From: Clostridia bacterium
GTDB taxonomy: Bacteria > Bacillota > Clostridia > Christensenellales > CAG-138
Length of the DNA: 64,000 bases
NCBI GenBank assembly: GCA_030526425.1
Contig: JAUNCT010000002.1
Coordinates: 1 to 64,000, forward strand
Direction of reading: 5' to 3'
The notes under the pieces were generated by a model that was not told the DNA's origin, ran no database searches, and saw nothing but the letters and a program-made list of their open reading frames with translations. Made by a program: the position numbers and the translations under genes. Positions 964 through 25,807 of this stretch are shown piece after piece (positions within the stretch are counted from its first letter, which is position 1; every line of letters begins with the position of its first letter).

Positions 964-1716
964 TCAGAAAAGCAAACTCACATTGCCGTACACGAGCATG
1001 CGGATGAGCCCGATGGCGGCGAGGTGTGCGGGATAGTACAAGTAGAAGAACCACTTCATCCACTTCGCCTTGCCGCGTTCGCCGTTATAGTGAGCGAGCA
1101 GCGGCCACACCATCAGCACGCCCACGAGTTCGAGCGCATAGGCCTTCGAAACGAAGAAGAACGAGACGATGCCGTACACAAGCACCCATTGGCACATGCC
1201 GAGCATCTGCTTTTTGAGGTTCCCGCGGTTGCCGTACATCGTAAGGACCGCCAGCACCGCAGGGCAGCTCCAGTCCGCGGGGAGCGCGGCGAAGATCAGC
1301 ACCGCCTGCAAGGTGATACGCTGCCACCGCTTCCATGTCGGCGTATTGTCTTCGATGTACAACGCCAGCACCGCGAGGAACAGCGGCAGCATCACGCTCG
1401 TGCGGTTGAGGAAGCTTCCCGTCGTCGGGTCGAGCGGGATGCCGAACGCAAAGCAGTACGCAAAATGCGAAACGATCGCGAACAGCCCGAGCCGCAGCAA
1501 ATACTTTTTGACGTTGCGCGTGTGGGCGTACCCCTCGCACACGAAAAACCACATGATGGGCGCCGTAAGCCTGCCGATGAAATGCAGCGCCAGCGGCACG
1601 GGCTCCGCAGGGAAGCCCGGAAAAAACAGATCCGTCGCGTGGTCGACCGTCATCGCGAGGATCGCGATCAGCTTGAGGTGGTTCGCGTTCAGGCGAAACC
1701 CCGGTTTCGTTTCCAT
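964..1716 (-). CDS. TraX family membrane protein
   Basis: Polytopic membrane protein with a TraX-like sequence (LKLIAILAMTVDH...YLYYPAHL). Start moved to the internal ATG at 1714-1716 because the longer ORF would overlap the TetR gene. Confidence 0.65.
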   Translation of the reverse strand: METKPGFRLNANHLKLIAILAMTVDHATDLFFPGFPAEPVPLALHFIGRLTAPIMWFFVCEGYAHTRNVKKYLLRLGLFAIVSHFAYCFAFGIPLDPTTGSFLNRTSVMLPLFLAVLALYIEDNTPTWKRWQRITLQAVLIFAALPADWSCPAVLAVLTMYGNRGNLKKQMLGMCQWVLVYGIVSFFFVSKAYALELVGVLMVWPLLAHYNGERGKAKWMKWFFYLYYPAHLAAIGLIRMLVYGNVSLLF

Positions 1717-1760
1717 CCTCTGTGCCCCTTGCCCCGCGCATGGCAGAGCCGGTCCGTTCC

Positions 1761-2363
1761 TTACCGCCCGGTCCCGTAGACCTCGGCGAAATGGCGCATG
1801 TGCCGTTCCGCCATCGCGAGGAATTCCGCTTCGCGCTCGGGCTCGCGGTCGTTGTGCTGAATGAGCAGGCTCACCGGTGCAGTGTATTCGAGCGCCATCA
1901 TTTCGGAACCGAGGTCCTTCAGCTGCCCGCAGGCGATCAGGTGTTCGATGCACACGCGGTTCAAACGCATCACGCCCTCGAGCTGGTGCGCGCTCGTCAG
2001 AGCGGCGATCTTCCGGTTGCGGAACTGCTCCATCGCCATCATTCTGCGGACGTTGCGGATGCGCTCATCGTGCAGGGTGAACTGCAGGCGCTTTTGGGAA
2101 GCCGCGATGAACTCCTCCATCGTTTCGGGGAGCCGCCCCATCTTCTCCGCAGTGCCGAAGTTTTCGCAATAATACGCTTCGATTTGGTCGATCAGCGTAT
2201 CGAGCAGAGCTTCCTTGCCCTTGAAATAATGGTACAGCGCCGGCCCTTTGATGCCGACCGAATCGGCGATCTCATCCACGCCGACACCGTCGTAGCCCCG
2301 GTCCGCAAACAGCTTCAGCGCCGCATCCAGGATCTGTTCTTTTTTCGAGAGTTTCGTTTCCAT
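1761..2363 (-). CDS. TetR/AcrR family transcriptional regulator
   Basis: N-terminal HTH ILDAALKLFADRGYDGVGVDEIADSVGIKGPALYHYFKGKEAL is a canonical TetR_N domain. 200 aa. Confidence 0.85.
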   Translation of the reverse strand: METKLSKKEQILDAALKLFADRGYDGVGVDEIADSVGIKGPALYHYFKGKEALLDTLIDQIEAYYCENFGTAEKMGRLPETMEEFIAASQKRLQFTLHDERIRNVRRMMAMEQFRNRKIAALTSAHQLEGVMRLNRVCIEHLIACGQLKDLGSEMMALEYTAPVSLLIQHNDREPEREAEFLAMAERHMRHFAEVYGTGR

Positions 2364-2443
2364 CGCATCCTCCGTGTTTAACGGTCATTAAACATATTCT
2401 AATACTGTATCGCGCCCCCGTCAAGCCGATGCCGTCACGGCGC

Positions 2444-2476
2444 AAAAAAAGAGCGCCGCGCGGGCGCTCTTTTTAT
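2444..2476. terminator. Bidirectional terminator between the TetR gene and tdk
   Basis: A7 run, then stem agagcgcc/ggcgctct, then T5 run. Confidence 0.7.
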
Positions 2477-2519
2477 TATGCGGGATATCGCTTTATTTTG
2501 CAATAGCTTGCGGCGGTGT

Positions 2520-3113
2520 TCACTCTTCCGTACACTCGCCTGCGCGGAGACCGGGACCGGGGTCGCCCAGCATCCAGTGCTTGCGGCACAGCCCGATGTA
2601 TTTGTCGTTCGCGCCGAGCACGACCTGTTCGCCCTCGCGCGTGACGCCGCCCTTGCCGTCGAGGCGGGCGTTGTTCGTTGCCTTGCGTCCGCACCAGCAG
2701 ATGGTCTTGACCTCTTCGATGGTGTCGGCACGCGCCAGAAGCCAGTGGCTCCCGGGGAAGAAATCCCCCTTGAAATCGGTGCGAAGACCGTAGCAGATGA
2801 CCGGAACATCGAGCGTGTCCACGATGGTAACGAGGTTGTCGACCTGTTCCTTCGTCATGAACTGCGCCTCGTCGATGATGAGGCAGTCGTACTCGTGCGC
2901 GCGGACCTTGTCCATGTCGAGCTCGTCGAGCCAGATGCACTCCGCCTCGAGACCGCAGCGTGACCAGACCTTGCGCGCACCGTTGCGCGTGTCGACCGCG
3001 GGTTTGAGCAGAATGGCGTTCTTGCCGCGTTCGCGGTAGTTATACCACACCATGATCGCATTCGCCGTTTTCGAGGAGCCCATCGCTCCGTAACGGAAGT
3101 ACAGTTTCGCCAT
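2520..3113 (-). CDS. tdk: Thymidine kinase
   Basis: MAKLYFRYGAMGSSKT P-loop start, DEAQF motif and C-terminal Cys4 zinc ribbon (CWCGRKA...CRKH). 197 aa. Confidence 0.95.
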   Translation of the reverse strand: MAKLYFRYGAMGSSKTANAIMVWYNYRERGKNAILLKPAVDTRNGARKVWSRCGLEAECIWLDELDMDKVRAHEYDCLIIDEAQFMTKEQVDNLVTIVDTLDVPVICYGLRTDFKGDFFPGSHWLLARADTIEEVKTICWCGRKATNNARLDGKGGVTREGEQVVLGANDKYIGLCRKHWMLGDPGPGLRAGECTEE

Positions 3114-3196
3114 TTGTTTCCTCCCCCCGTCCGCGCCTTGCGCCGGACACTGCCGCCTATTATATCAAAGACCGCACGGGTCCGCCACATCGTTTT

Positions 3197-4117
3197 TCAG
3201 AAGGCGTACTTTTCGGTGTAGTTCGCGTCGTCGTTCAAAAACGATTCCGGTACGCCCGCGTCCGCAAAGGTCGGATCCATGCGCCGCCAGCTCTTTCCGT
3301 CGAAGTACACGACGTTCTCGAGCCACCCGGCTTCCTCCGTCCACACGCCGATCCACGCGTGGTACTGCGTGCCGGCGTATCCCATGATGAGCTTCGTCGG
3401 GATCCCGACGGAGCGGAGCATCCCCGCCATGAGCGCCGCGTAATCGAAGCAGATGCCCTTTTTGTTGCGGAGCGCCGCATCGAGGTCGGGCACGTAGCCC
3501 GACTGCACGTTGCTCGCGAGCGCCTCGTCGTAGCGGAGCTCTCCGAGAACGAAGTCGTACACGCGCGCCACGCAGGTCAGCGTGTCGTTCGCGCCCCGCG
3601 TGAGTTCCGCGGCTTTTTTCACGGTCTCCGGCGCGTCCTGCCAGTTCACATAACGGTTCGGGTGCAGGAAGGGTGCGAACGCGTCGCGCAGCGCGACTTC
3701 CGCATCCGCCGAAACCAGCACGGCGTAGCGGTCGTCCGCCACGTTCACGAGCACAGTCACGCGGTAGTTCCCGTCCCCTTCCGTAAGCGGCAGCGCCGCC
3801 CATGCTCCGTTATCGATGGGGTAGGTCATCGTCGAAGCGGGTCCCTTGACCTGCGCCTTCAGCTTGCGCCCCGCCGCGTCCTCGCCGCGCACCATGACAT
3901 AGCCCTCCGAAACGTTCGAGGTGTCGACCTCCGCAAACTCCGTCCGCTTGCCCGAAAGCCCCGGCGCCGTGTTGAACAGCGCCTCCGTCATCACCTTCGG
4001 ACGGACGCCGACCGACTCGAGCCGCACCGCCGTCTGCCGCGAACAGGCACAGCAAACAAGCCCGCAGAGCATGCAGGCGCAGAGCAGTCGTATGCGGTTG
4101 CGGCGTCGGTTCGTCAT
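3197..4117 (-). CDS. Transglutaminase-like domain lipoprotein
   Basis: Lipobox-like Cys-rich signal (LLCACMLCGLVCCAC). Transglutaminase core GICFDYAALMAGMLRSVGIPTKLIMGY...YHAWIGVW, consistent with a Cys/His catalytic pair. Confidence 0.65.
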   Translation of the reverse strand: MTNRRRNRIRLLCACMLCGLVCCACSRQTAVRLESVGVRPKVMTEALFNTAPGLSGKRTEFAEVDTSNVSEGYVMVRGEDAAGRKLKAQVKGPASTMTYPIDNGAWAALPLTEGDGNYRVTVLVNVADDRYAVLVSADAEVALRDAFAPFLHPNRYVNWQDAPETVKKAAELTRGANDTLTCVARVYDFVLGELRYDEALASNVQSGYVPDLDAALRNKKGICFDYAALMAGMLRSVGIPTKLIMGYAGTQYHAWIGVWTEEAGWLENVVYFDGKSWRRMDPTFADAGVPESFLNDDANYTEKYAF

Positions 4118-4121
4118 CCGC

Positions 4122-5666
4122 TCAGTCTCCTTTTGCGAGTTCCGTCAGTTTTCCGAGGATACGCACCATCGCGTAGGTGTCCAACCCGCAGTACTCCAGC
4201 AGCTGTCTGCGGATCCGTTCCCGCGGTTCTCCCGCGGTGAGTGCCATGCGTATGAACGCGTCCGGCGCCTCGGCGCCGTTGTGCACGCCCTCCAGCGCCC
4301 CGTAATCGAGTGCGGGATCGTCCGGAAACAGGGCGGGCAGCACCTTTTTCAGTGAGCACGAGCCGTGCGTTGCCGCCGGGACCACCATGCGCTTGCGGAA
4401 CGGCAGCATGAGGTCCGTGAGGTTCCCCGCGATGGCGTTCAGGTGCGGCGCAAGGTCGGCGTACCGTTCGCCGAGCCCCGTCAGCACGCCCTGTTCGAAG
4501 CCGCTGCACCAGGCGAGCACGCAGGCGTCGCGCGGGATCTCGCGGCAAAGCCGCTCCGCGATCTCGCGCTGCGGGTCGGCTTCCCGCTCATCGGGCAGGG
4601 GCGCGAGGTATTCGGTATGTCCGGGTTCCGCGCCGGGCGCTTCCTGCACATGCAGAGAATACTGAAAGGGCATGAACTCATACGGTCGCATCCCGGGGTA
4701 CAGCGGCACGGGCGCGTTCAGCGTTTCGAAATCCAGATGATACAGCGGGTAATGCAGCGTGCCGAGGAATCCCGCCAGCGCCTCGCGGTCCACCGCGATC
4801 CCCGTTTCGGGTCCCTGTTCCGCGGCATCGAGCTGCATCCGCGCCGTCGCGCACAGGCGTTTCACCGTTCTGAGCTGTTCGAAGGAGACCTTGCCCTCGC
4901 CGTACAGGCGCAGCTTCGTCGTCAGCTGCATCCCGCCGAGGTCGAACACGTTCGGGCTCGGCAGCCCGGCATCCTCCGCGCAGCGCCCGAAGTACGGGCA
5001 CCGTTCCGGCTTGAAGCAATGCGCGCCGAAGTCCACCCCGGGTGGCGTCCGCCGTGCGACCGTATCGCTTGCCTCCGACAGGCGCTGTGCCGCGAACCCC
5101 GCGCGGTTTTGCACGCGGCAGGTGATATCCTCGGTGATCAGCAGTTCCTCCGGCACGAGCGTCCCGCCGTGCACGTAGTTCGGGTCGGGGCGCAGCACCC
5201 GCACGCCCGCGGGCGTGTACCCGAGCGTCTGCAGCGTCACACAGAAGCACGCCGCGCGTTCCGTCAGGCTGTCGGGGATGCGGAACCCGTCGCACACGTA
5301 TACCACGCCGATGCGCCCGCCGGCACAACGCACCAGGGCGTCCGCCTCCGCAAGGCGCCCTTCACAGGTCAGTGCCGCGCCGAAGACCCGCCGCGCGCCG
5401 TTTGCCAGCGCACGCTCGGTCGCAAAGCAACGCTCTTCAGCGTCCGCCTCCGGGGCGATCGCAACGTTGCCTTCCCGCATGCCGCCCATCCGCAGCCGCG
5501 CCGCGCGGAGCAGCTGCTCGCGCCCCGCCGAGGGGGACACCTCCGGACAGGCACCGTCGCGGTAGGCGAACCAAAGCCGTTTCGGGCAGGAGAGCCCCGA
5601 AAGATACTGCGCTTCCGTCAAATACGCCGTGTGCACCGGTACTCCCCCCTTCCGAAGCCTTTGCAT
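4122..5666 (-). CDS. DUF2779 domain protein (PD-(D/E)XK/Cas4-like nuclease fold family)
   Basis: N-terminal YLSGLSCPKRLWF and central YHLDFETLNAPVPLY motifs match my recollection of DUF2779 proteins. 514 aa. Confidence 0.55.
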   Translation of the reverse strand: MQRLRKGGVPVHTAYLTEAQYLSGLSCPKRLWFAYRDGACPEVSPSAGREQLLRAARLRMGGMREGNVAIAPEADAEERCFATERALANGARRVFGAALTCEGRLAEADALVRCAGGRIGVVYVCDGFRIPDSLTERAACFCVTLQTLGYTPAGVRVLRPDPNYVHGGTLVPEELLITEDITCRVQNRAGFAAQRLSEASDTVARRTPPGVDFGAHCFKPERCPYFGRCAEDAGLPSPNVFDLGGMQLTTKLRLYGEGKVSFEQLRTVKRLCATARMQLDAAEQGPETGIAVDREALAGFLGTLHYPLYHLDFETLNAPVPLYPGMRPYEFMPFQYSLHVQEAPGAEPGHTEYLAPLPDEREADPQREIAERLCREIPRDACVLAWCSGFEQGVLTGLGERYADLAPHLNAIAGNLTDLMLPFRKRMVVPAATHGSCSLKKVLPALFPDDPALDYGALEGVHNGAEAPDAFIRMALTAGEPRERIRRQLLEYCGLDTYAMVRILGKLTELAKGD

Positions 5667-13222: not shown

Positions 13223-13540
13223 ATGCAAACCACGAGAGGAGACGGGACCGTGTACGGATTGAAAGACCGCTTGGTCGGCGAACTCACGGCGCTCGCCGCA
13301 TACCACGACCTGGACAGGCTGATCCTCTTCGGCTCCCGCGCGCGGGGCGATCACCGCGAGCGCAGCGACATCGACCTTGCCGTTCTCGGCGGCGACACCG
13401 CACGCTTCGCCTTGGATGCCGATGAAGAGACCTCGACCCTGTTGCGGTTCGACATCGTGGACCTCGGCGGTGCCGTTCAGCCCGAGCTGCTCGAAAGCAT
13501 CCGCCGCGACGGAAAGGTATTGTATGCAAAAGTTCGATAA
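13223..13540 (+). CDS. Minimal nucleotidyltransferase (MNT) antitoxin-type protein
   Basis: GS-x10-DxD motif (GSRARGDHRERSDIDLAV). An alternative GTG start at 13250 has a better-spaced GGAGA RBS. Overlaps the downstream HEPN gene by 17 nt. Confidence 0.8.
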   Translation: MQTTRGDGTVYGLKDRLVGELTALAAYHDLDRLILFGSRARGDHRERSDIDLAVLGGDTARFALDADEETSTLLRFDIVDLGGAVQPELLESIRRDGKVLYAKVR

Positions 13541-13916
13541 CTTCTGCCGGGCGTTGGAAAACCTCGGCGAGATCGGGCGCTATTCCGCCCCTTACGGCAC
13601 CGTGGAGCTGACCGGGATGGTCGCCCTGTTCGAAATCTGCTTCGAGCAAGCGTGGAAGGCGATGAAGGAAGCCCTCGAGCTTTCCGGCTTTTCCGAAGGG
13701 AAGACCGGCTCGCCGAAGCTCATTCTCAAAACCGCTTACGCCGCCGGAATGATCGGCAACGAAGACCTGTGGCTTTCCGCCCTCGAGGCGCGCAACAGCG
13801 CCGCGCACGCCTACAACGCCGCCGTTGCCGAAGACATCGTGCAAAAAACCAAGGCGGAATTTCTCCCCATGTTCCGCGCGCTGAAAGAGGAGATCGCCCG
13901 CAATTGGGCGGTTTGA
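13524..13916 (+). CDS. HEPN-domain nucleotidyltransferase-substrate-binding protein (HI0074-like toxin-type)
   Basis: RNxxxH HEPN motif (ARNSAAHAYN). 130 aa. Forms an overlapping pair with the MNT gene. Confidence 0.8.
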   Translation: MQKFDNFCRALENLGEIGRYSAPYGTVELTGMVALFEICFEQAWKAMKEALELSGFSEGKTGSPKLILKTAYAAGMIGNEDLWLSALEARNSAAHAYNAAVAEDIVQKTKAEFLPMFRALKEEIARNWAV

Positions 13917-16156: not shown

Positions 16157-16192
16157 ACAAAAACGGAGCCCTTTTACGGGGCTCCGTTTTGT
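16157..16192 (-). terminator. Terminator of the TIR operon (also usable on the plus strand)
   Basis: aaacggagccc / gggctccgttt stem, nearly identical to the hairpin at 15681-15706, with T-runs on both sides. Confidence 0.7.
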
Positions 16193-16300
16193 GCCTTTCC
16201 GCCCGCCTGCGGCGGGAAGGGCGCCTGCGGCGCAGCGGCATAATAACCGCCACACCGCACCGTCATTTTCGTTTCCCGTTACCTTCGGATTGATTTCAGA

Positions 16301-19141
16301 TCAGAAGATATCGGATTCAAGATTCATCCAAAAAGCGGGGCGAACACAGCCACCGTCGTCGTTGACATAGTTGAGGAGGGAGCCGTAGGGGTACACGCGA
16401 GCGGCACAGTCCTGATTGAGGCCGGGGGAGCGCAGCCACCAACACCCGGCGGCAGCCCCTTCCGCGGTCTTATAGTCCTCGTTCGTCCAAGCACCTTGCT
16501 CTTTTGCGTACGCCGTCGGCTGCACGCGGGATTTCGTGTTCTTATCCGCGCCACTCTTCTGCCAATACTCGACGCCGAAATACTTGTTCGCCTCGGCGTA
16601 GCTCAAAAGGAACACCTTGTCCTTCGTGTCGTTGCCGCCGTTGGTGCTCCACTTGCTGTACCCCTGACTCTTGCCGTTGTCCACTTCCGTCGTCAGGATA
16701 GCCTTCTGTTCTTCCGCCGTGAACGCCTTGTTCAAAAACTCGCCGTTCAGCCAGGTGCGCAGCGTGCACTTTTCCCACGTGACGCTCGTGTCTTTCGTGT
16801 TGTATGGTTTTGCATCCAAACCGTATTTTGCTATCAGCAGCGACTTGTCGCCTTTTACATCCAGCACGATCCATTCGATCGGTTCCGCGCCGTTCGATGT
16901 GTTGTTGTCCTGCTCGTAGCTGCCGAAGGTCACGACGCTGCCCACCGTGCGGTAAAGCTTGCGCTTCGCTTCGCGCGCCGCCGCCGCCGCCGCCAGATTG
17001 TCGTCCGTTTTCAGCAGCGTGTCAACATCCTTGTAACCTTTCAGCGGCAAAAACACATCATACGCTTTATCATAATTCTTTGCCGCAAGCAGTGCCTTGC
17101 CCTGTTGGTACTTCGTTTCGGAAACCTGCGTCGCGGCGTCCTTGTAGCCGCCGAGCTCTTCGAACGCCAGCACGGCGCCCGCGTAATTTCCCGCTTCCCG
17201 CAGGGCGACCGCCTTGTTGTAGTTGCCGCTCGGGATGATGACCTTCGTCACCACGAGAAACACGGCAACGCACAGCGCCGCCGCGGCGGTGGCGATGGTG
17301 ATGAGCCGCCTGCGCTTTGCGGCGGCTTCCTCCGCGGCGATCCTTTCGCGTTCCTCCGCTTGTCTCCGGCGCTCTTCCTCTTGGCGGCGGCGTTCCTCTT
17401 CGGCGCGCCGTTCTTCCGTCTCGATGCGCCCGATCTCCGCGGCGCACCGGCGCGCAAGTTCCGCACTGTCCTTGTAACCGTGCATGGCTTCGAGCGCGGT
17501 CTTCGCGTTTGCAAAGCCCTGCTTGTCGCGCGCGGCGTTCATGGTGCCGGCAGCCTTCTCGTAATCGGCTTCGCGCTTCTTCACGGCACCATCATGCAGC
17601 TTGGCGACCTTGGCGTCCGCCGCCGCAAGGTGCGCCTTGTAAGCGTTGCACACCCTTTCGGTGCTCGCTTTGTCCTGCGCTTCGGCTTGGGCAACGCGCG
17701 CATCCAACGCGGCGTTGATTTCCGCTACCGCGGCTTCGGTCTGCTGCTTGGTTTCGCCCTTGGCGTACTGCCGCGCGCGGTTCAGCAGGCGGTCGTTCGC
17801 AAGCGCCCTTTTCTGCTGTTCCCGCTGGCTGCGCCTGCCCGCAAGCACGCTGTCATAGCCCCGGTCGAACGCGTACGGTAACCGGATCTCCTTTTCCGCA
17901 AGGTAGTGCGCAACGGTGTTTTCCTTCACCGCCCGTGCGATGTGCATCGTATCCTCGGGGCACGCGGTCAGCCGCTCCGCCGGAGGTTGCTTTTCGTTGC
18001 GCCCGCATTCCGCCTTCACCCACGAAGCGAGAGAGGGCTTCTTTTCCCGCGCGAGCAGCTTGCCGATGAACGCCTCCGCGCACTCGGGCTCGAGGTTCAG
18101 CGCCTCCTCGAAAAAGCCGTCCGCCTTTTCCCACTCGTGGTCTTCGAGCGCCATGTTGCCGCGCTTCACCTGTGCGGCGGTGGTCGTTCCGCCCACGGTC
18201 GCTTGCGTTACGACGGTCTGCACCTTGGGCGCTTCCGGCTTCTTGCCGGCATCCAGCACCTTTTTCACGCCGCGCAGCAGGTCCTGCATGAAGCCGATCT
18301 TGCCCATATCCTGGCTTTGCAGGTTGCTCAGCTCCTCCGGCAGGTCGTAGGGGTCCATCCCCCGGTAGCAGGGGATGAGCAGGCGCTTTCGGTCGTTCGC
18401 CATCAGGGCGAGGTAGCGGCTCCACTCGTTTTTGACCCACACGGCGTTGAAGTATTCGGGCTTGCTGCCGACCGCCACCATGACCTTGGCGGAATTCAGC
18501 GCCGCGAAGATATACGGTTCGTACTGCTGCCCCAGCTTGTCTTCGAGCGTGATGCGGCTGAAGAACACCTTGTAGCCCTGTTCGGCAAGCCCGTAATAGA
18601 TCTCCTGCGCCCACTGCGAGTCGCGCGTGCGCTGCCCGTTCTCATCCGTTTCCTTGTAGCAGATGAACACATCGTAGGGCTTTTCGTTCGCCGAAATCGC
18701 GAGGATGCCCTTTTGGATCTCGGCGATGCGCTGCGCCTCCGCCTTGTAGATGTTCGCGCTCTCCGCATCCGGCGCATGTTCAACGGCGGCAAGGTAATCC
18801 GCATCCGCGAGGATGCTCGCCACCTGCACGCGGTGGCAGGTCGGGATGCGCTGCTTGGTTTTCGGGTCTTCGACGTATTCGATGCCGTAACGGCTCAGCA
18901 CAGCGCCCCAATGCGCCTCGGCGTCCGTGTCGTCCTGCTCGAGCAGCTTTTCATACGCCGCGACCGCCTTGTCGAATTCGCACTGCCGGCGGAAGTGGTT
19001 CGCCCGGTTGTAGCGGTTGAGCTGCTGCTCGTCTTCCGCCTTCGGGATGGTCGAAACGCTCCCGCAGTATTCGCACGTGCCGTAGGTATCCCCCGGCGTG
19101 AACGCGATGTCCCCACCGCACATTTTGCATTTGATGATCAT
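16301..19141 (-). CDS. Zinc-ribbon / TIR-domain / single-pass TM / extracellular TPR-like plus DUF6273-like domain protein
   Basis: N-terminal CxxC...CxxC ribbon. TIR core KPYDVFICYKETDENG...KVFF with candidate catalytic Glu in AVWVKNEWSRYL. Glu/Arg-rich coiled coil, then TM helix LITIATAAAALCVAVFLVVTKVII. C-terminal domain has a CWWLRSPG...VRPAFWMNL motif. 946 aa. ATG lies 3 nt after the upstream gene's stop. Confidence 0.85.
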   Translation of the reverse strand: MIIKCKMCGGDIAFTPGDTYGTCEYCGSVSTIPKAEDEQQLNRYNRANHFRRQCEFDKAVAAYEKLLEQDDTDAEAHWGAVLSRYGIEYVEDPKTKQRIPTCHRVQVASILADADYLAAVEHAPDAESANIYKAEAQRIAEIQKGILAISANEKPYDVFICYKETDENGQRTRDSQWAQEIYYGLAEQGYKVFFSRITLEDKLGQQYEPYIFAALNSAKVMVAVGSKPEYFNAVWVKNEWSRYLALMANDRKRLLIPCYRGMDPYDLPEELSNLQSQDMGKIGFMQDLLRGVKKVLDAGKKPEAPKVQTVVTQATVGGTTTAAQVKRGNMALEDHEWEKADGFFEEALNLEPECAEAFIGKLLAREKKPSLASWVKAECGRNEKQPPAERLTACPEDTMHIARAVKENTVAHYLAEKEIRLPYAFDRGYDSVLAGRRSQREQQKRALANDRLLNRARQYAKGETKQQTEAAVAEINAALDARVAQAEAQDKASTERVCNAYKAHLAAADAKVAKLHDGAVKKREADYEKAAGTMNAARDKQGFANAKTALEAMHGYKDSAELARRCAAEIGRIETEERRAEEERRRQEEERRRQAEERERIAAEEAAAKRRRLITIATAAAALCVAVFLVVTKVIIPSGNYNKAVALREAGNYAGAVLAFEELGGYKDAATQVSETKYQQGKALLAAKNYDKAYDVFLPLKGYKDVDTLLKTDDNLAAAAAAREAKRKLYRTVGSVVTFGSYEQDNNTSNGAEPIEWIVLDVKGDKSLLIAKYGLDAKPYNTKDTSVTWEKCTLRTWLNGEFLNKAFTAEEQKAILTTEVDNGKSQGYSKWSTNGGNDTKDKVFLLSYAEANKYFGVEYWQKSGADKNTKSRVQPTAYAKEQGAWTNEDYKTAEGAAAGCWWLRSPGLNQDCAARVYPYGSLLNYVNDDGGCVRPAFWMNLESDIF

Positions 19142-19144
19142 GAT

Positions 19145-19768
19145 TTATTTCTCCGCTGTTTCAAATCTCTTAAATCTGTTTTCGACTATTTCTTCAATGT
19201 TTTTTACGAGCAGTTCGATTTTCTTTATGTTTTCCGCGTCCTTTACGCTTATTGACTTTATCTCGTTCTTTTTATAATCCCCTTTATGCACTATCGCATT
19301 TCTTCTATCCACGAGTTTCTCAACATCTTTAAGCAATGCTTCGTCTTGTGACTTTCCCTGTGCATTTTCGGTTATCTTCGGCAAACCGTACAACGCAAAC
19401 AGTTCATCAATTACTTTCATCCTTTGTGTCGTATAGTGTTCATAGTACTGATAAACCTTATCTTGGATGCCGGAAAGAGATTGATTATCCCGATACATCT
19501 CGATTACCGTACCTATTGTCACACCATAATCCAACAGGCGTTTCTCGATATTCTCGTTGATTTCCTCATTATTGATAAAGGTATAGAAATGTTCAGCAAA
19601 ACAGTTCGTCATATATGCATCCATCGCCGCAACACTCAAAACGACAGCCGCACGTAACAAATCACAATTACCTTTGGGGTCTGTACCTGCTTTCTGATTG
19701 TTGTACAAAGCTACCAATTTGTTGCAACGATCTATCGTCTTCCGAAAAATCGTATATGCATTAGACAT
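19145..19768 (-). CDS. HEPN-motif protein (RNxxxH), probable Abi-type RNase; strongly AT-rich gene
   Basis: 207-aa ORF at roughly 38% GC inside a genome of about 63% GC. Canonical HEPN motif DRRNAIVHKG near the C-terminus. Confidence 0.6.
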   Translation of the reverse strand: MSNAYTIFRKTIDRCNKLVALYNNQKAGTDPKGNCDLLRAAVVLSVAAMDAYMTNCFAEHFYTFINNEEINENIEKRLLDYGVTIGTVIEMYRDNQSLSGIQDKVYQYYEHYTTQRMKVIDELFALYGLPKITENAQGKSQDEALLKDVEKLVDRRNAIVHKGDYKKNEIKSISVKDAENIKKIELLVKNIEEIVENRFKRFETAEK

Positions 19769-19777
19769 ACTACCCGC

Positions 19778-20410
19778 TTACTTCTTCTCCGCCTTCGCGA
19801 CCGTCTTCCGCTCTTCCACCATCCGCAGCGCTTCGGCGACATCGCCCTTTTCCACCGCTTCGGCGATCCTTCCGTCCATGCTCGTCGGGGTCGGGTCGGC
19901 ACAGCGCACGGCTTCCGCCAGCCGCTTCGCCGCGGGGTCTTTCGTTTTCGCCGCAAGGGCGTTGACCGCGGTGCGGATGGCTTTCCATCCGGCGGTCGTG
20001 TCCTTCACGCGTTGTTCGCTCTTTTCCACCGCTTCGCGCACGGCTTGCTTTACGCTCAGCGCCATCAGCGTGCCGAGCACCAAAGCGATCTCGATAATGA
20101 GCGCGAGCCACAGCGGGCACAGCTTCGAAAACGCCATCAGCAGCAGACCGGCGACGAGCTGCGCCGCCAGCGCCGCACAGCCCACCCGGTACAGGGGCCA
20201 GCCGATCAGCTTGCTCTGCAAGCCTTGCGCCTTGCCGAACGCCAAATAAAACGCAACAGCGCACAGGGCGAACATCACCGCATCCGCGCCGAGCGCGACA
20301 TAAAACACCGCCGTCCGCGCGAAGGGGAACAGCAGCGCCACCGCCGCAACGAGCAGCAGCGCCAACAGCCAAACCTTGATTGCCTGCTTCGATTCTTTCA
20401 TCGTTTCCAC
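19778..20410 (-). CDS. Small membrane protein (4 predicted TM helices plus a helical cytoplasmic tail)
   Basis: 210 aa. Hydrophobic segments across aa 10-120. Stop and start are tightly spaced with the flanking genes. Confidence 0.6.
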   Translation of the reverse strand: METMKESKQAIKVWLLALLLVAAVALLFPFARTAVFYVALGADAVMFALCAVAFYLAFGKAQGLQSKLIGWPLYRVGCAALAAQLVAGLLLMAFSKLCPLWLALIIEIALVLGTLMALSVKQAVREAVEKSEQRVKDTTAGWKAIRTAVNALAAKTKDPAAKRLAEAVRCADPTPTSMDGRIAEAVEKGDVAEALRMVEERKTVAKAEKK

Positions 20411-20411
20411 C

Positions 20412-22265
20412 TCACTCGGGTCGTTTGCCGCCGCACTCGGGGCAGAACTTCGCCGTTACGCCCTTGTTGCCGCAGGCGCAATCCCACACGGCGGGGGCTT
20501 CGGGCTTTTTCGCCCCGCACTCGGGGCAAAACTTGCTTGTGATGCCCGTTGCGCCGCACGCGCAGCTCCACGCCGCCGGGGCTTCGGGCTTTTTCGCCCC
20601 GCACTCGGGGCAGAACCTGCTGGTAATGCCCTTGGCACCGCAGGCGCAGTCCCAAGCATCCGCCGCAGCGGGCGCGGGCTTCTTCGCGCCGCATTCGGGG
20701 CAGAAGTTCGAGGTGATGTTCTTTGCGCCGCACGCGCAGGTCCATCCGCCCATGCCGGCCGCCTGCCCGAGCACGCCGCCCGCCTGTTGGGTCAGGGGCG
20801 AAACGGCTTCCTTCGTCATGCCGATCACGCCGCCCATCACGCCGAGCCCGATGCCCAGCTGCATCGCATCCCCGGCGATGGTGCCGAGTCCGCCCGCGCC
20901 GCCGTTCCGCACGGCTTCCGTGCCCACCTGCCGCGCGGTCTCCTGCTGGTAGGTGTAGCCCTTCATCTTCATTTCCATGGCTTCCGCCTCCGCCTGCATG
21001 CGGTAAGCGTCCGCCTCTGCCTGCGCTTGGATGCGCAGCGCGTCCGCATCGCCCTGCGCGCCGATGACCTTCATGCGCGCGGCGGTCTGCGCCTCCACGG
21101 CCTTGCGTTCGAACGCCGCCTCCGCCTCCGCTTTTTTGATCGCCTCTTCCTTCGTTTTCAGGTACAGGTCGGCGTGCTGCTGCTTCATGCGGCGGAAGTT
21201 CGGGTCGTCGTCGGGCGTGACGATGTTCGCCACGTAGAACTCCGGCATTTCGAGACCGTATTCCGAAAGCTCGGGGTCGATCGCCGCCTTCATCGCCGCG
21301 GCGATGGCGTCGAGATGCATATCGAGCTCGAGCACGCTGATGCTGTTTTGCTTGATGACCCGCGCGAGGTTCGCCTTGACCTTGGCGGCGATCATCGTGC
21401 GGAAATATCCGCCGATGGCGCGCGCGCCGATCGCCCCGCCTTCGCCGAACAGGTCGCCCTGCGTCAGCCCGCCCGCGGTGCCCACCAGCTTGATGAGCAG
21501 CTTCCGCGCATCCGTCACGCGCATGTTGAACGCACCCGATGCGCCGAGCTCCACGTGCATGCCCGTCGCGGGGTCGAACAAACCGACCTTACTCGGCGTG
21601 CCCCACTTGATGCCCGCCTGCGTGGTGAGGTTCACGAAGTAGACCTCCGCATGGAAGGGCTGCCCGTCGACGGGCAGGCGGTACAGGGCTTCCGTCTTCG
21701 GCATCACGCCGGTTTCGAGCGTGTAGCCGCCCGGTCCGAAGGAGTCGAGCGCCTCGCCGTTGCGGAAGAACACCGCCTCCTGACTTTCGTGCACGATGAG
21801 GCGGCTGCCCGTCGTAAAGTCGGTGAGCGGGTGCTTCCACACGAAGGTGTCGTTCGCCCCTTCGTAGCGGATCACCGCGGGCACGCCCTTGTCGCGCACC
21901 TCCGCGCGTTTGATCTCCTTTTGCACATCCGCCACGGTGTCGCACACGGGGCAGGTGATGTGCGCCGCGCCCTTCGAAGCCTGCAGCTCGCAGCCGCAGG
22001 TCTCACAGCGGAAGTGCACGAGGTTGCCGTAATCGGCTTCCGTCACGAGCTGCTGCCTGCACACGGGGCACTTCGCATCCGTGCCCTCCGCCTGGTCGTA
22101 AACGACGTTGTTCCCGCAGGAGGGGCAGGTCTTCGTGGTCATGCGGTCCGTCTTCACGTGGATGACGTTGCCGCAGCTGCATTGGATGTGCTTGGATGCG
22201 AAAAAGCCCGTGCTTGCCTGCACATAGCTGTGGCAAACCGGGCATGCGATGATGAATTTTCCCAT
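20412..22265 (-). CDS. SPFH/band-7 (COG4260-type) protein with N-terminal and C-terminal zinc-ribbon arrays
   Basis: N-terminal run of CxxC motifs, then an SPFH-like core (VIRYEGANDTFVWKHPL...), a coiled coil, and four C-terminal W-C-x-C-G...F-C-P-E-C-G-x-K-(K/R)-P-E repeats. 617 aa. Confidence 0.8.
   Translation of the reverse strand: MGKFIIACPVCHSYVQASTGFFASKHIQCSCGNVIHVKTDRMTTKTCPSCGNNVVYDQAEGTDAKCPVCRQQLVTEADYGNLVHFRCETCGCELQASKGAAHITCPVCDTVADVQKEIKRAEVRDKGVPAVIRYEGANDTFVWKHPLTDFTTGSRLIVHESQEAVFFRNGEALDSFGPGGYTLETGVMPKTEALYRLPVDGQPFHAEVYFVNLTTQAGIKWGTPSKVGLFDPATGMHVELGASGAFNMRVTDARKLLIKLVGTAGGLTQGDLFGEGGAIGARAIGGYFRTMIAAKVKANLARVIKQNSISVLELDMHLDAIAAAMKAAIDPELSEYGLEMPEFYVANIVTPDDDPNFRRMKQQHADLYLKTKEEAIKKAEAEAAFERKAVEAQTAARMKVIGAQGDADALRIQAQAEADAYRMQAEAEAMEMKMKGYTYQQETARQVGTEAVRNGGAGGLGTIAGDAMQLGIGLGVMGGVIGMTKEAVSPLTQQAGGVLGQAAGMGGWTCACGAKNITSNFCPECGAKKPAPAAADAWDCACGAKGITSRFCPECGAKKPEAPAAWSCACGATGITSKFCPECGAKKPEAPAVWDCACGNKGVTAKFCPECGGKRPE
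20415..20744 (-). repeat. Four tandem DNA repeats of about 84 bp, each encoding one C-terminal zinc-ribbon module of the SPFH protein
   Basis: Near-identical nucleotide units and peptide repeats WxCACG..(I/V)T(S/A)xFCPECGxK(K/R)PE x4. Confidence 0.8.
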
Positions 22266-22330
22266 GTGTGTGCTCTCCCGTGTCGTTGTTTTATCGGTAA
22301 ACCTGTGGTGTGAACTGCATTTTCGGTACC

Positions 22331-22362
22331 ATTATACACCCCCCCCCGATTTTGCTTTTCAA
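22331..22362 (-). promoter_or_regulatory. Sigma-70-like promoter TTGAAA-N20-TATAAT with a G9 homopolymer (plus-strand C9 at 22339-22347) inside the spacer
   Basis: Read on the minus strand: TTGAAAagcaaaatcGGGGGGGGGtgTATAAT. It lies about 70 bp upstream of the ATG at 22265 and is oriented toward the operon. Confidence 0.55.
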
Positions 22363-22475: not shown

Positions 22476-23888
22476 TTATCTTGCGGTCTCGACCTTGATG
22501 ATGTTGGTGTTGCCGCTGCTGCCCGTGGTGCCGCCGGTGATGACGACGTTCTCGCCGGGCTTCAGGTCCATGATGCGCTTGGCCTCCTTCATGCCCTGAT
22601 AGAACATGACGTCGATGGAGGTGTAGTGCTCGCTCATCACGGGGATGACGCCCCAGCTCAGGTTCAGCTGGCGCCACGCCTTGGGCGTGGTCGTCACGCC
22701 GATGATATCCACCGGGCTGCGGAAGCGGCTGACCATGCGCGCGGTCTTTCCCGTGATGGAGTTGACCACGATGCAGCGCGCGTCCACGTCGATGGCCATC
22801 GCGCAGGTCGCGTGGGAAATGGCGTCGATGGTGTTTCCGATGGGGAACTCGGTCTTCAGGAAACGGCGCTTGTAGTTGATGCTCTTTTCGGTGAACAGGG
22901 CGATCTCCGCCATGTTGCGCACGGCTTCGGCGGGGTATTTGCCCGCGGCGGTCTCGCCGGAAAGCATGATCGCCGAGCTGCCGTCGTACACGGCGTTCGC
23001 CACGTCCGAGATCTCCGCACGGGTCGGGCGCGGGTTCGTGACCATGGATTCGAGCATCTCCGTCGCGGTGATGACGCGCTTGCCGAGCATGCGGCACTTT
23101 TCGATGAGCTTCTTTTGGATGACGGGCACCTCCACGAAGGGGATCTCCACGCCGAGGTCGCCGCGCGCAACCATGATGCCGTCGGCGATCTCGCAGATCT
23201 CTTCGATGTTGTCGACGCCGGCGCGGTTCTCGATCTTCGCGATGATGCTGATGTCCTCACCGCCGTTCTCCACGAGGAAGTCGCGCAGGACCTTCATGTC
23301 GCTCTTGTTCGAAACGAACGAAGCCGCGACGAAGTCCACATCGTTTTCGATGCCGAACAGCAGGTCGGCCTTGTCCTGCTCGCTGAGGTAATCCTGCTTG
23401 AGCACCTTGTTCGGGAAGGACATGCTCTTGCGGTCGGAAAGAACGCCGCCGTTGACGACGCGGCAGTTCACATCGTTGCCCTCGACGCTTTCGACGGTCA
23501 GCTTCACCATGCCGTTGTTGATCGTCACGGTGTCGCCCGCCTTCAGCTCCTCGTGCAGGTGCTTGTAGCTCACGGAAACGCGCTGCTCGTTGCCCGCGAC
23601 ATCCGCGGTCGTCAGGGTGAACAGGTCGCCGTCGTTCAGAACGATCTTCTTGTTTTCGAAGGTGCCGATGCGGTATTCCGGTCCCTTCGTGTCGAGCATG
23701 ATGGCGATGGGCTTGCCCAGCTCCTCGCGGATCTTCTTGATGCGGTCGATGCGCGCCTGATGCTCGGAGTGATCCCCGTGGGAGAAGTTGAGGCGCGCCA
23801 CGTTCATGCCTTCCTGCATGAGGTTGCGCAGCATCTCCTCGCTTTCGCACGCGGGGCCGATGGTGCAGATGATCTTCGTTTTTCTCAT
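22476..23888 (-). CDS. pyk: Pyruvate kinase
   Basis: MRKTKIICTIGPA start with an AGGAGG RBS. ...MVARGDLGVEIP active-site region. 470 aa. Confidence 0.95.
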   Translation of the reverse strand: MRKTKIICTIGPACESEEMLRNLMQEGMNVARLNFSHGDHSEHQARIDRIKKIREELGKPIAIMLDTKGPEYRIGTFENKKIVLNDGDLFTLTTADVAGNEQRVSVSYKHLHEELKAGDTVTINNGMVKLTVESVEGNDVNCRVVNGGVLSDRKSMSFPNKVLKQDYLSEQDKADLLFGIENDVDFVAASFVSNKSDMKVLRDFLVENGGEDISIIAKIENRAGVDNIEEICEIADGIMVARGDLGVEIPFVEVPVIQKKLIEKCRMLGKRVITATEMLESMVTNPRPTRAEISDVANAVYDGSSAIMLSGETAAGKYPAEAVRNMAEIALFTEKSINYKRRFLKTEFPIGNTIDAISHATCAMAIDVDARCIVVNSITGKTARMVSRFRSPVDIIGVTTTPKAWRQLNLSWGVIPVMSEHYTSIDVMFYQGMKEAKRIMDLKPGENVVITGGTTGSSGNTNIIKVETAR

Positions 23889-23992
23889 ATCTGAAATCCT
23901 CCTTGGGACAGAATGTCGCGGGTTTCGGTCTATTATAAAACAAAGCGCGCGGCATTCCAACAAAAACCGCGAAGTTTGTTTTTGGGGGTATG

Positions 23993-24740: not shown

Positions 24741-24934
24741 ACGGTCTCTCCTTTGAAAGCGGGATCCCGTAGATTATACCACAGCCCGCGCTTTGCCGCC
24801 ACCCGCCGCTATTCCGCCGCGGGCGCGGGTTTTGCCGCACCCAATTCGCCGCGCGGGCGGTTCCCACCATGCGTTTTGCGGGGTATAATGGGGACATCCC
24901 CCAAGGGAAAAAGCAACAAAGGAGAATGGATCTC

Positions 24935-25807
24935 ATGTTCAAAAAAGCAGACGGGACCCGCGCCTACGGACGCATCGTCGCGTTCGCGCTCGTCGCCATC
25001 ATCGTGCTCGGCGTCGCGCTGGGCTGCTACACCACCGTACCCGCAGGTCACACGGGCGTCGTGCTCAACTTCGGCCGCGTGCAGGAGACCGTCCTCGGCG
25101 AAGGTCTCAACTTCAAGATCCCCTTCGTGCAGAACGTCATGCTCATCGACAACCGCATCGTCAAGCTCGACGTCCGCACCGAATCCTTCTCGAAGGACCT
25201 GCAGTCCGTCGAAGTCGACGTGGCGGTCAACTACAACATCCGCAAGGACGCCGGCTCCGCCCTCTACCGCGACATCGGCATGAACTACGAAGACGTGCTC
25301 ATCACCCCCGCCGTGAACGAGGTGCTCAAGGCGGTCACCGCCCGCTACACCGCGGTCGAGCTCGTTGCCAACCGCTCCGAGGTCTCGGTGCTGCTCACGC
25401 AGGGGCTCGTCGAAAAACTCAGCCCCTACGGCATCTCCATCCGCGAGCTCAACATCATCAACTGGGACTTCTCGGCGGAATACATCTCCGCGGTCGAAGC
25501 CAAGCAGGTCGCCGAGCAGAACCTGATCAAGACCCGCACCGAGCAGGAGCAGGCGCTCGTCATCGCCAACACCGAGGCGCAGAAGCGCGTGATCGCCGCC
25601 GAGGCGCAGGCGAACGAGATCAAGATGCTCGCCGAAGCGACCGCCGAAAGCAACCGCACCATCGCAGAATCCCTGTCCGACGAGCTGATCCGCTACCGCA
25701 CCGTCGACAAGTGGGACGGCATGCTGCCCTCCGTTGTCGGCAGCGGCACCACCCCGATGATCGACATCTCCGGGCTCACGGGCATCGGAACGAACCCCAA
25801 CGAGTAA
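24935..25807 (+). CDS. SPFH/band-7 family protein (prohibitin/HflC-like)
   Basis: N-terminal TM, then SPFH core (GHTGVVLNFGRVQETVLGEGLNFKIPFVQNV), then coiled coil. Start chosen for RBS spacing; an alternative ATG lies at 24926. Confidence 0.8.
   Translation: MFKKADGTRAYGRIVAFALVAIIVLGVALGCYTTVPAGHTGVVLNFGRVQETVLGEGLNFKIPFVQNVMLIDNRIVKLDVRTESFSKDLQSVEVDVAVNYNIRKDAGSALYRDIGMNYEDVLITPAVNEVLKAVTARYTAVELVANRSEVSVLLTQGLVEKLSPYGISIRELNIINWDFSAEYISAVEAKQVAEQNLIKTRTEQEQALVIANTEAQKRVIAAEAQANEIKMLAEATAESNRTIAESLSDELIRYRTVDKWDGMLPSVVGSGTTPMIDISGLTGIGTNPNE

Follow-up and report, generated by a model that had tools for sequence, protein, structure and literature searches.

An apparently undescribed SPFH-4TM-TIR gene module of gut Clostridia with horizontally exchanged cassette genes

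In a 64,000-nucleotide stretch of the genome of a Clostridia bacterium (GenBank assembly GCA_030526425.1, contig JAUNCT010000002.1, positions 1 to 64,000, hereafter the window), four genes on the minus strand form a tightly packed operon that encodes, in the order of transcription, a zinc-ribbon SPFH scaffold protein (20412..22265, 617 residues), a small partner with four transmembrane (TM) helices (4TM, 19778..20410), a soluble HEPN_RiboL-PSP protein (19145..19768, 207 residues) and a TIR sensor protein (16301..19141, 946 residues). Comparison with related loci showed that the conserved unit is made of three genes and not four, namely the SPFH gene, the 4TM gene and one to four TIR paralogues, and that the HEPN gene is a foreign cassette sitting in a swap-slot within the operon. 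The SPFH-4TM-TIR module appears to be widespread in gut Clostridia and to be undescribed. The original prediction for this region, made from the letters alone, had read all four genes as one TIR-HEPN defence or signalling system. Its four tightly packed open reading frames (ORFs) were all recovered where it had placed them, and of its intergenic gaps of 2, 9 and 3 nt the second and third were confirmed and the first was corrected to 1 nt by the ORF list. The probable 4TM start, however, is the ATG of residue 4 (20401), which would widen this gap to 10 nt. The homologue alignments begin at that codon, and the NCBI product has 207 residues, compared to 210 for the longest frame.

The conserved core and its distribution

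Loci were collected from one genome per GTDB species, returning 80 loci whose ORFs were searched with profiles of the window proteins, and the core was counted in the 63 loci having at least 4 kb downstream of the SPFH gene. The 4TM gene directly follows the SPFH gene in 60 of the 63, and genes for TIR proteins with the same zinc-ribbon and TPR head are found on the same strand downstream in 43 (one to four genes) and immediately upstream in 16 more, giving an adjacent TIR gene in 59/63. Every one of the 114 TIR ORFs is co-oriented with SPFH, and the number of TIR paralogues per locus ranges from one to four. These frequencies define the core as SPFH + 4TM + TIR(n), and they show that homologues of the genes do keep company elsewhere, which removes one of the grounds on which the original prediction would have fallen. 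The core genes also diverge together, since identity to the window proteins co-varies across loci both between SPFH and the TIR N-terminal module (rho 0.55, p = 2e-5) and between SPFH and 4TM (rho 0.50). The contexts of two of the homologues consist of SPFH, a protein of ~213 residues and TIR_2 proteins, with a 4TM-TIR gap that is empty or holds a 203-residue HEPN gene (PF05168) or an unrelated 235-residue gene. Exact-sequence contig look-ups with the window TIR and SPFH proteins gave no match.

The surveyed carriers belong to Oscillospiraceae, Ruminococcus, Lachnospiraceae, Acutalibacteraceae, Christensenella, Aristaeellaceae, Allobaculum and Solobacterium, with single metagenome-assembled genomes of Kiritimatiellaeota and Holophagaceae, and they include the cultured Allobaculum stercoricanis DSM 13633 and Lachnospiraceae bacterium NE2001 and AC2031. 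Some of the loci adjoin recombinase, Mob or insertion sequence genes.

The core proteins

The SPFH protein matches Band_7_1 (PF13421) in Pfam at 3.9e-36, with 125 bits against a cut-off of 24, along with several zinc-ribbon matches, and is on this profile evidence a member of the Band_7_1 (YdjI-like) SPFH branch. Seven CxxC...CxxC zinc ribbons are present, three of them N-terminal (residues 1-115) and four in tandem at the C-terminus (residues 508-617), so that the predicted SPFH assignment stands and the predicted count of about eight ribbons does not. Between the two ribbon clusters lie the SPFH domain (residues 150-353), a long helix (residues 355-434) and a Gly-rich low-complexity segment (residues ~455-507), and hydropathy gave no TM helix. 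An AlphaFold2 model of moderate confidence (pLDDT 67.5) shows the SPFH domain followed by an 80-residue helix, and Foldseek matched this model at probability 1.00 to prohibitin, stomatin, HflK/C, QmcA (of QmcA-YbbJ) and flotillin with E values of 1e-7 to 1e-5. These matches have low TM-scores (0.19-0.21 on the query), as neither the zinc-ribbon parts nor the helix orientation superpose. More than 6,500 SPFH homologues are detectable, the best 120 of which are 58-77% identical, almost all of them at least 65%. The window also contains a second, canonical SPFH/Band-7 gene (24869-25807, plus strand, 312 residues) ~2.6 kb upstream of the operon and on the opposite strand, which has weak similarity (6.5e-6) to the profile of the operon's SPFH protein.

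The small partner protein has the four TM helices called for it beforehand, the last of which is predicted to extend into a long cytoplasmic helix that ends in a small helical domain (AlphaFold2 model, pLDDT 77), and alignment of its homologues revealed an invariant ADPTP motif in this small domain. It has no match in Pfam, NCBIfam or PADLOC (PADLOC-DB v2.0.0, used for all defence-model searches).

The TIR protein contains Pfam matches to TPR_2 (2.3e-10), TIR_2 (8.2e-14 at residues 158-280, cut-off 28 bits) and DUF6273 (1.3e-30 at residues 765-940). From the N-terminus, and all on the minus strand, it is composed of a zinc ribbon with TPR repeats (residues 1-150, nt 19141-18692), the TIR domain (residues 152-298, nt 18688-18248), a conserved segment running to residue ~365 and followed by a coiled coil, a single TM helix recognized by hydropathy (residues 613-636, nt 17305-17234) and an outer part of TPR-like repeats and DUF6273 (nt 16849-16322). 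The TM helix is preceded by KRRR, predicting an N-in/C-out orientation in which the zinc ribbon, TPR and TIR regions are cytoplasmic and DUF6273 is external. Within the TIR domain, E239 (nt 18427-18425, in VKNEW) aligns to the glutamate of SKWCLMELAE in the L6 TIR domain of flax (phmmer against that domain, 7.7e-4), and this residue is kept in 112/112 ungapped family members, in agreement with the catalytic-Glu context originally read from the sequence. We take this position to be the catalytic residue of plant and bacterial TIR NADases, and the profile match and the conserved W-x-x-x-E glutamate fit a catalytic-type domain of the enzymatic (NAD-cleaving) TIR class.

The N-terminal ~365 residues are strongly conserved, with many alignment columns above 90%, and a HMMER search over 1.84 billion representatives returned 8,850 family members as cluster representatives at 50% identity (E <= 1e-30). 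In most of them, which are 615-1,935 residues long, the match is confined to residues 2-365. The C-terminal domains are diverse and interchangeable; among 87 TIR paralogues, Pfam found RCC1_2 in 24, DUF6273 in 16, LRR_5 in seven and LRR_8 in six, with MORN and Listeria-Bacteroides repeats among the others. A similar exchange is seen in locus L090, whose TIR protein has an N-terminal region very similar to that of the window protein, as judged by eye, and carries an RCC1 propeller at the position occupied by DUF6273 in the window. Among 88 complete TIR paralogues, a strong TM helix occurs near residue 590 in 50 (~57%), whereas 33 lack any TM helix, indicating that membrane proteins and soluble ones are found within the family.

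According to published work, DUF6273 adopts a C-type-lectin-like fold and is used by phages as a receptor-binding domain diversified by diversity-generating retroelements (PMC10743442). A search of the 64-kb window for a template repeat of the DUF6273 3′ end (16251-16900) found no such repeat, and the domain was ruled out as a target of a retroelement of this kind at this locus. A further group of 14 operon-embedded proteins, most of them 350-552 residues long, shares the zinc-ribbon and TPR head of the TIR protein, with a long helical or coiled-coil region in place of the TIR domain (L068:4717-6375, L030:7567-9177, L033:12628-14217, L013:11886-13277 and ten more). They are possible regulators or decoys of this platform.

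The HEPN gene, the cassette slot and the operon borders

The HEPN protein matches HEPN_RiboL-PSP (PF18735, 5.8e-14) over its full length in Pfam, and the RNxxxH motif reported in the original prediction is present as the Rx4H sequence RRNAIVH (residues 155-161, nt 19306-19286), which takes the form RR[NH]xI[VA]H in relatives. The gene has a GC content of 0.381 (0.43 at third codon positions, GC3), compared to 0.61-0.66 (GC3 0.80-0.87) for its neighbours. Six relatives are detectable, one of which is the same locus from another sample (L089) and another of which is 48% identical and occupies the same slot of a different operon (L090). Two others, at 35% identity, have native GC and stand in unrelated contexts, each followed by an unrelated gene of ~295 residues and beside a DNA methyltransferase or PLD-type gene. 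This ~295-residue partner is unrelated to SPFH, 4TM or TIR, which rules out that HEPN and TIR are a conserved pair in disguise. The HEPN_RiboL-PSP gene and its unannotated ~295-residue neighbour are themselves a conserved pair outside the operon, beside an N6_N4 methyltransferase or PLDc_2 gene (L091:410-1939 and L094:4305-5828), and may be a separate two-gene defence module.

Across the surveyed loci, 56 extra ORFs were found at gene junctions of the operon. With the family of TIR-less zinc-ribbon and TPR paralogues excluded, the GC content of these cassettes is below that of the core genes in 31 of 32 cases (mean -0.09, Wilcoxon p = 1.4e-9), compared to a difference of only -0.006 for the flanking DNA. 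HEPN is absent from most related loci, and the position between 4TM and TIR is empty or filled by unrelated AT-rich genes, so that the four-gene TIR-HEPN system of the original prediction does not hold up, whereas its view of the HEPN gene as a horizontal insertion does. A direct view of such an exchange is given by loci L005 and L007, in which the SPFH proteins are 100% and the TIR proteins 99% identical, yet the cassette is a HEPN gene in the former and an unrelated 235-residue gene in the latter. The swapped segment takes in the 3′ end of the 4TM gene. A cassette at this position takes the place of a spacer of 12-60 nt that otherwise separates the 4TM stop codon from the conserved start of TIR (ATGATCATCAAATGCAAAATGTGCGG), and inspection of the junction sequences revealed no flanking repeats.

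Cassettes occur at any gene junction of the operon and include HEPN PF05168, HEPN pEK499_p136, SIR2_2, FRG, DUF2971 (twice), DUF4365, DUF559, DUF4760 and RVT_1 families. In PADLOC, the reverse transcriptase matches RT_UG26 (DRT, 2.5e-164), the FRG gene PDC-S15 and the DUF2971 gene PDC-S31. These results show the operon junctions to be a hotspot of horizontal exchange for small, AT-rich genes of the kind typical of defence islands. We do not regard the HEPN protein as a core effector; its gene, though co-transcribed with the module, would most probably be a toxin or defence gene that acts on its own. The RT_UG26 gene is found at L047:8350-9591 between TIR and SPFH genes, with a gene for a 131-residue zinc-ribbon protein after it. 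In L090, the TIR gene (1711-4314) has a GC content of 0.40 overall, compared to 0.60 for the SPFH fragment and 0.50 for 4TM on the same contig, which suggests that the exchanged segment can include the part coding for the TIR ectodomain in addition to the cassette.

Both borders of the operon were located where they had been predicted. Upstream, beyond the pyruvate kinase gene (22476-23963) and the hairpin with which that gene closes, direct reading of the sequence found a putative minus-strand promoter (22331..22362) with TTGAAA at 22362-22357 and an extended -10 box, TG-TATAAT, at 22338-22331. A consensus promoter scan did not flag this site because its spacer is 20 nt long. At the other end, an intrinsic terminator hairpin followed by a T-run (16157..16192, minus strand) folds at -32.1 kcal/mol (z = -5.24), and none of 200 shuffled sequences was equally stable; a simple terminator scan did not list it. 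The promoter spacer holds a tract of nine G (22347-22339), and shrinkage of this tract to six or seven G would bring the spacer to the optimal 17-18 nt. In 3 of 87 loci (the window, L014 with G9 and L045 with C7), a G or C homopolymer of at least 7 nt lies in the 300 nt that precede SPFH, compared to ~0.2 loci expected from the background of 0.0078 per kb, so that such a tract is recurrent, yet not conserved. One lineage carries a small serine recombinase gene (176-199 residues, GC 0.47) directly upstream of SPFH (L005:7247-7777, L006:7247-7777, L007:7178-7777 and L008:5470-6000), and in L005 and L007 larger genes of mobile elements, for a large serine recombinase, TnpV and RhuM, are inserted beside it. 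No convincing inverted repeats were found around the promoter, the best being one weak 12-nt repeat in L006, and an invertible promoter is unsupported, the window itself having no recombinase. About 2.4 kb downstream of the operon, two overlapping plus-strand ORFs (13223-13540 and 13377-13916) resemble, judged by their translations, a toxin-antitoxin pair of the nucleotidyltransferase/HEPN (DUF86-like) type.

Candidate function and comparison with known systems

A role in conflict or defence, in which the module would be a sensor/effector array of NAD-cleaving TIR proteins on a YdjI-like SPFH platform, is the reading that we rank first, at roughly even odds. The 4TM partner would recruit the SPFH protein to the membrane, by analogy with the action of YdjG and YdjH on YdjI in B. 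subtilis, and the SPFH protein may oligomerize there into a ring or cage, like the cages of known structure to which its model is similar, that organizes or restrains the TIR clients. Binding of a ligand to the variable domain, or a disturbance of the membrane, would then cluster the TIR domains. Enzymatic TIR domains are activated by oligomerization. The clustered domains might cleave NAD+, causing depletion or producing a signal, and the cell would arrest as it does in abortive infection or a conflict response. The repeated presence of defence-type cassettes, the arrays of TIR paralogues and the swapping of their domains favour such a conflict or defence role. In a fuller form, which we offer only tentatively and regard as doubtful in its entirety, this would be a widespread, innate-immune-like receptor platform of gut Clostridia in which an SPFH ring or cage and a 4-TM anchor hold an array of TIR receptors with exchangeable sensors (LRR, RCC1 propeller or C-type-lectin-like), facing outer ligands in some paralogues and inner ligands in others and firing an NAD+-cleaving TIR response, as a bacterial counterpart of the logic of Toll-like receptors. 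The operon would double as a dedicated exchange site, where recombination within the conserved genes on either side lets species trade effector or defence cassettes, HEPN among them.

Several observations weigh against a defence array. NADase activity, contact between SPFH and TIR proteins and phage resistance are all inferred, and a fold search with the 4TM model returned generic helical bundles only. The 33 of 88 TIR paralogues without a TM helix make the term membrane receptor unfit for the family as a whole, and sensing outside the cell is unusual among antiphage systems. The core genes are native in composition and co-diverge, and the closest 120 SPFH homologues are for the most part 65-77% identical, so that the core resembles a cellular function maintained by vertical descent more than a typical patchy defence system; the neighbours in the window are housekeeping genes (pyruvate kinase, a permease) with no defence island. 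Searches of viral contigs with SPFH patterns and of INPHARED with the TIR N-module gave no match, and plasmids carry only distant SPFH relatives, the best being from a Butyrivibrio plasmid at 37% identity, near which no TIR-domain gene is annotated, the neighbouring hypothetical proteins not having been scanned. Carriage of the module by phages or plasmids was rejected on these results. The cassettes may also be uninformative on the function of the core if the operon is merely a well-expressed landing site.

The native composition of the core is also in favour of the main alternative, in which the module is a housekeeping device for envelope sensing or membrane organization, an explanation that we consider possible, though short of probable. 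The YdjI-like SPFH/4TM pair would organize membrane microdomains, and the TIR proteins would be surface or cytoplasmic sensors whose LRR, RCC1 and lectin-like domains bind cell-wall, glycan or host and partner ligands, with TIR serving, outside immunity, to signal or to mediate interactions in adhesion, cell-cell recognition or envelope homeostasis and with the cassettes as unrelated hitch-hikers. It is consistent with the part that YdjI, the nearest SPFH protein to have been studied, plays in the Psp response to membrane stress, with a core GC content equal to that of the flanks and with the co-divergence of the core genes, with the very high sequence conservation and the housekeeping chromosomal context of the window, with the lack of the core in phage records and PADLOC, and with ectodomain types that are common in the surface proteins of gut anaerobes. 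It is at odds with the invariant catalytic-type Glu, which points to enzymatic TIR activity. To our knowledge, such activity in bacteria has so far been tied to conflict systems. Paralogue arrays with swapped sensors and embedded defence-type cassettes are likewise hallmarks of an arms race, and neither the four-gene block nor the called genes of eight listed loci include PspA or a regulator of envelope stress, the neighbours in the other loci not being annotated.

The cassettes themselves allow two further explanations. If the operon were simply a hotspot for integration or recombination, single-gene defence cassettes would act alone and the core would be irrelevant to defence. Such independence would fit the matches of some cassettes to stand-alone defence or candidate models (DRT UG26, PDC-S15 and PDC-S31), their occurrence at any junction and a swap breakpoint inside the 3′ end of 4TM, which is consistent with homologous exchange between operons. 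It does not account, however, for features of the core itself, namely the conservation of the TIR Glu, the arrays of paralogues and the exchange of sensor domains, and we consider it unlikely; it overlaps with both the defence and the housekeeping readings of the core without excluding either, and is compatible with the latter. Still less credible is an obligate four-gene system along the lines of the original prediction, with a HEPN RNase that would act as effector in response to TIR signalling. The tight packing of HEPN between 4TM and TIR (9- and 3-nt gaps), the intact Rx4H motif and the 48%-identical HEPN in the same slot of a second lineage (L090) speak for it. Against these stand the empty or otherwise filled slot in most loci, the L005/L007 pair that differs in the cassette only, the pairing of the 35%-identity relatives with a ~295-residue partner near a methyltransferase or PLD gene, the GC content of 0.38 against 0.61-0.66 and, in Pfam, a HEPN protein without a recognized domain that could sense a TIR-derived nucleotide. 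As a general rule, the obligate model is largely refuted.

Should the defence array function as proposed, it would be the first link of SPFH/flotillin-type membrane scaffolds to TIR signalling and would give a concrete client to the YdjI-like SPFH branch, which is large but poorly understood. It would also add bacterial TIR proteins with extracellular LRR, lectin or propeller sensors, raising the possibility that prokaryotic TIR immunity senses threats at the surface before DNA entry. Gut and rumen metagenomes contain the family in abundance, so that any function it has would bear on phage-host ecology in the microbiome. The cassette slot provides a searchable signature, an AT-rich gene between the 4TM stop and the conserved TIR start MIIKCKMCGG, which could be mined for new defence genes of gut anaerobes.

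In line with the original prediction, PADLOC found no named defence system that fits the operon and gave no significant model match for the four proteins, the only hits being Csx1 (1.7e-3, on a zinc ribbon) and PDC-S66 (8.4e-4, in the TIR region), and NCBIfam gave nothing significant for them. A literature search on SPFH/Band-7 with TIR, YdjI, PF13421 and DUF6273 found no description of the module. CBASS and Pycsar have no counterpart here, as neither Pfam nor PADLOC found a cyclase domain or model match in the operon. Rst_2TM_1TM_TIR, other membrane-associated TIR systems and PDC-S66 resemble the module in combining small TM proteins with TIR, but SPFH is not part of them and none of their models matched significantly. 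In its working the module would come closest to a TIR sensor/effector system. Thoeris, in which the TIR sensor ThsB acts with the effector ThsA, shares with it TIR domains with a catalytic-type Glu and the possible presence at one locus of several TIR paralogues that differ in their sensing parts. Membership in Thoeris fails because no ThsA, of either the SIR2/SLOG or the Macro-TM type, is encoded among the four proteins or adjacent to them, and there is no PADLOC Thoeris match; the TIR proteins of the module are, in addition, large, multidomain and often transmembrane, with a conserved zinc-ribbon and TPR head.

Animal Toll-like and IL-1 receptors are similar to the window TIR protein in being single-pass proteins with extracellular ligand-binding repeats, which are LRR in some of the paralogues, and a cytoplasmic TIR domain. 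The order of the parts is reversed, however, with TIR N-terminal and the ectodomain C-terminal in the bacterial protein, whose TIR domain is of the Glu-bearing enzymatic type. The likeness is an analogy only, with no sign of common architectural descent.

On the scaffold side, the predicted SPFH domain and long wall helix resemble those of the HflK/C-FtsH, QmcA-YbbJ, stomatin, flotillin and prohibitin cages, and SPFH-NfeD pairs likewise encode a membrane partner in the operon, although the window SPFH protein lacks a TM anchor as well as a partner of the NfeD or protease kind. A closer likeness is to YdjI, encoded in the B. subtilis pspA-ydjGHI operon, a soluble SPFH protein that contains low-complexity sequence and a zinc finger at its C-terminus and reaches the membrane only through YdjG/YdjH (PMC8581546; PMC11237479). 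Neither of these two papers reports a link to TIR, and the literature search on SPFH or Band-7 together with TIR likewise found none. The window operon differs in having no pspA, being limited to SPFH, 4TM, HEPN and TIR, in having a 4-TM partner that lacks a TPM domain and is not detectably related to YdjH or YdjG, in the three extra N-terminal zinc ribbons of its SPFH protein and in its linked TIR genes. Its SPFH protein nevertheless shares with this COG4260-type system the Band_7_1 domain, the absence of a TM helix, the low-complexity segment and the C-terminal zinc ribbon, and in both systems the membrane partner or partners are encoded next to the SPFH gene.

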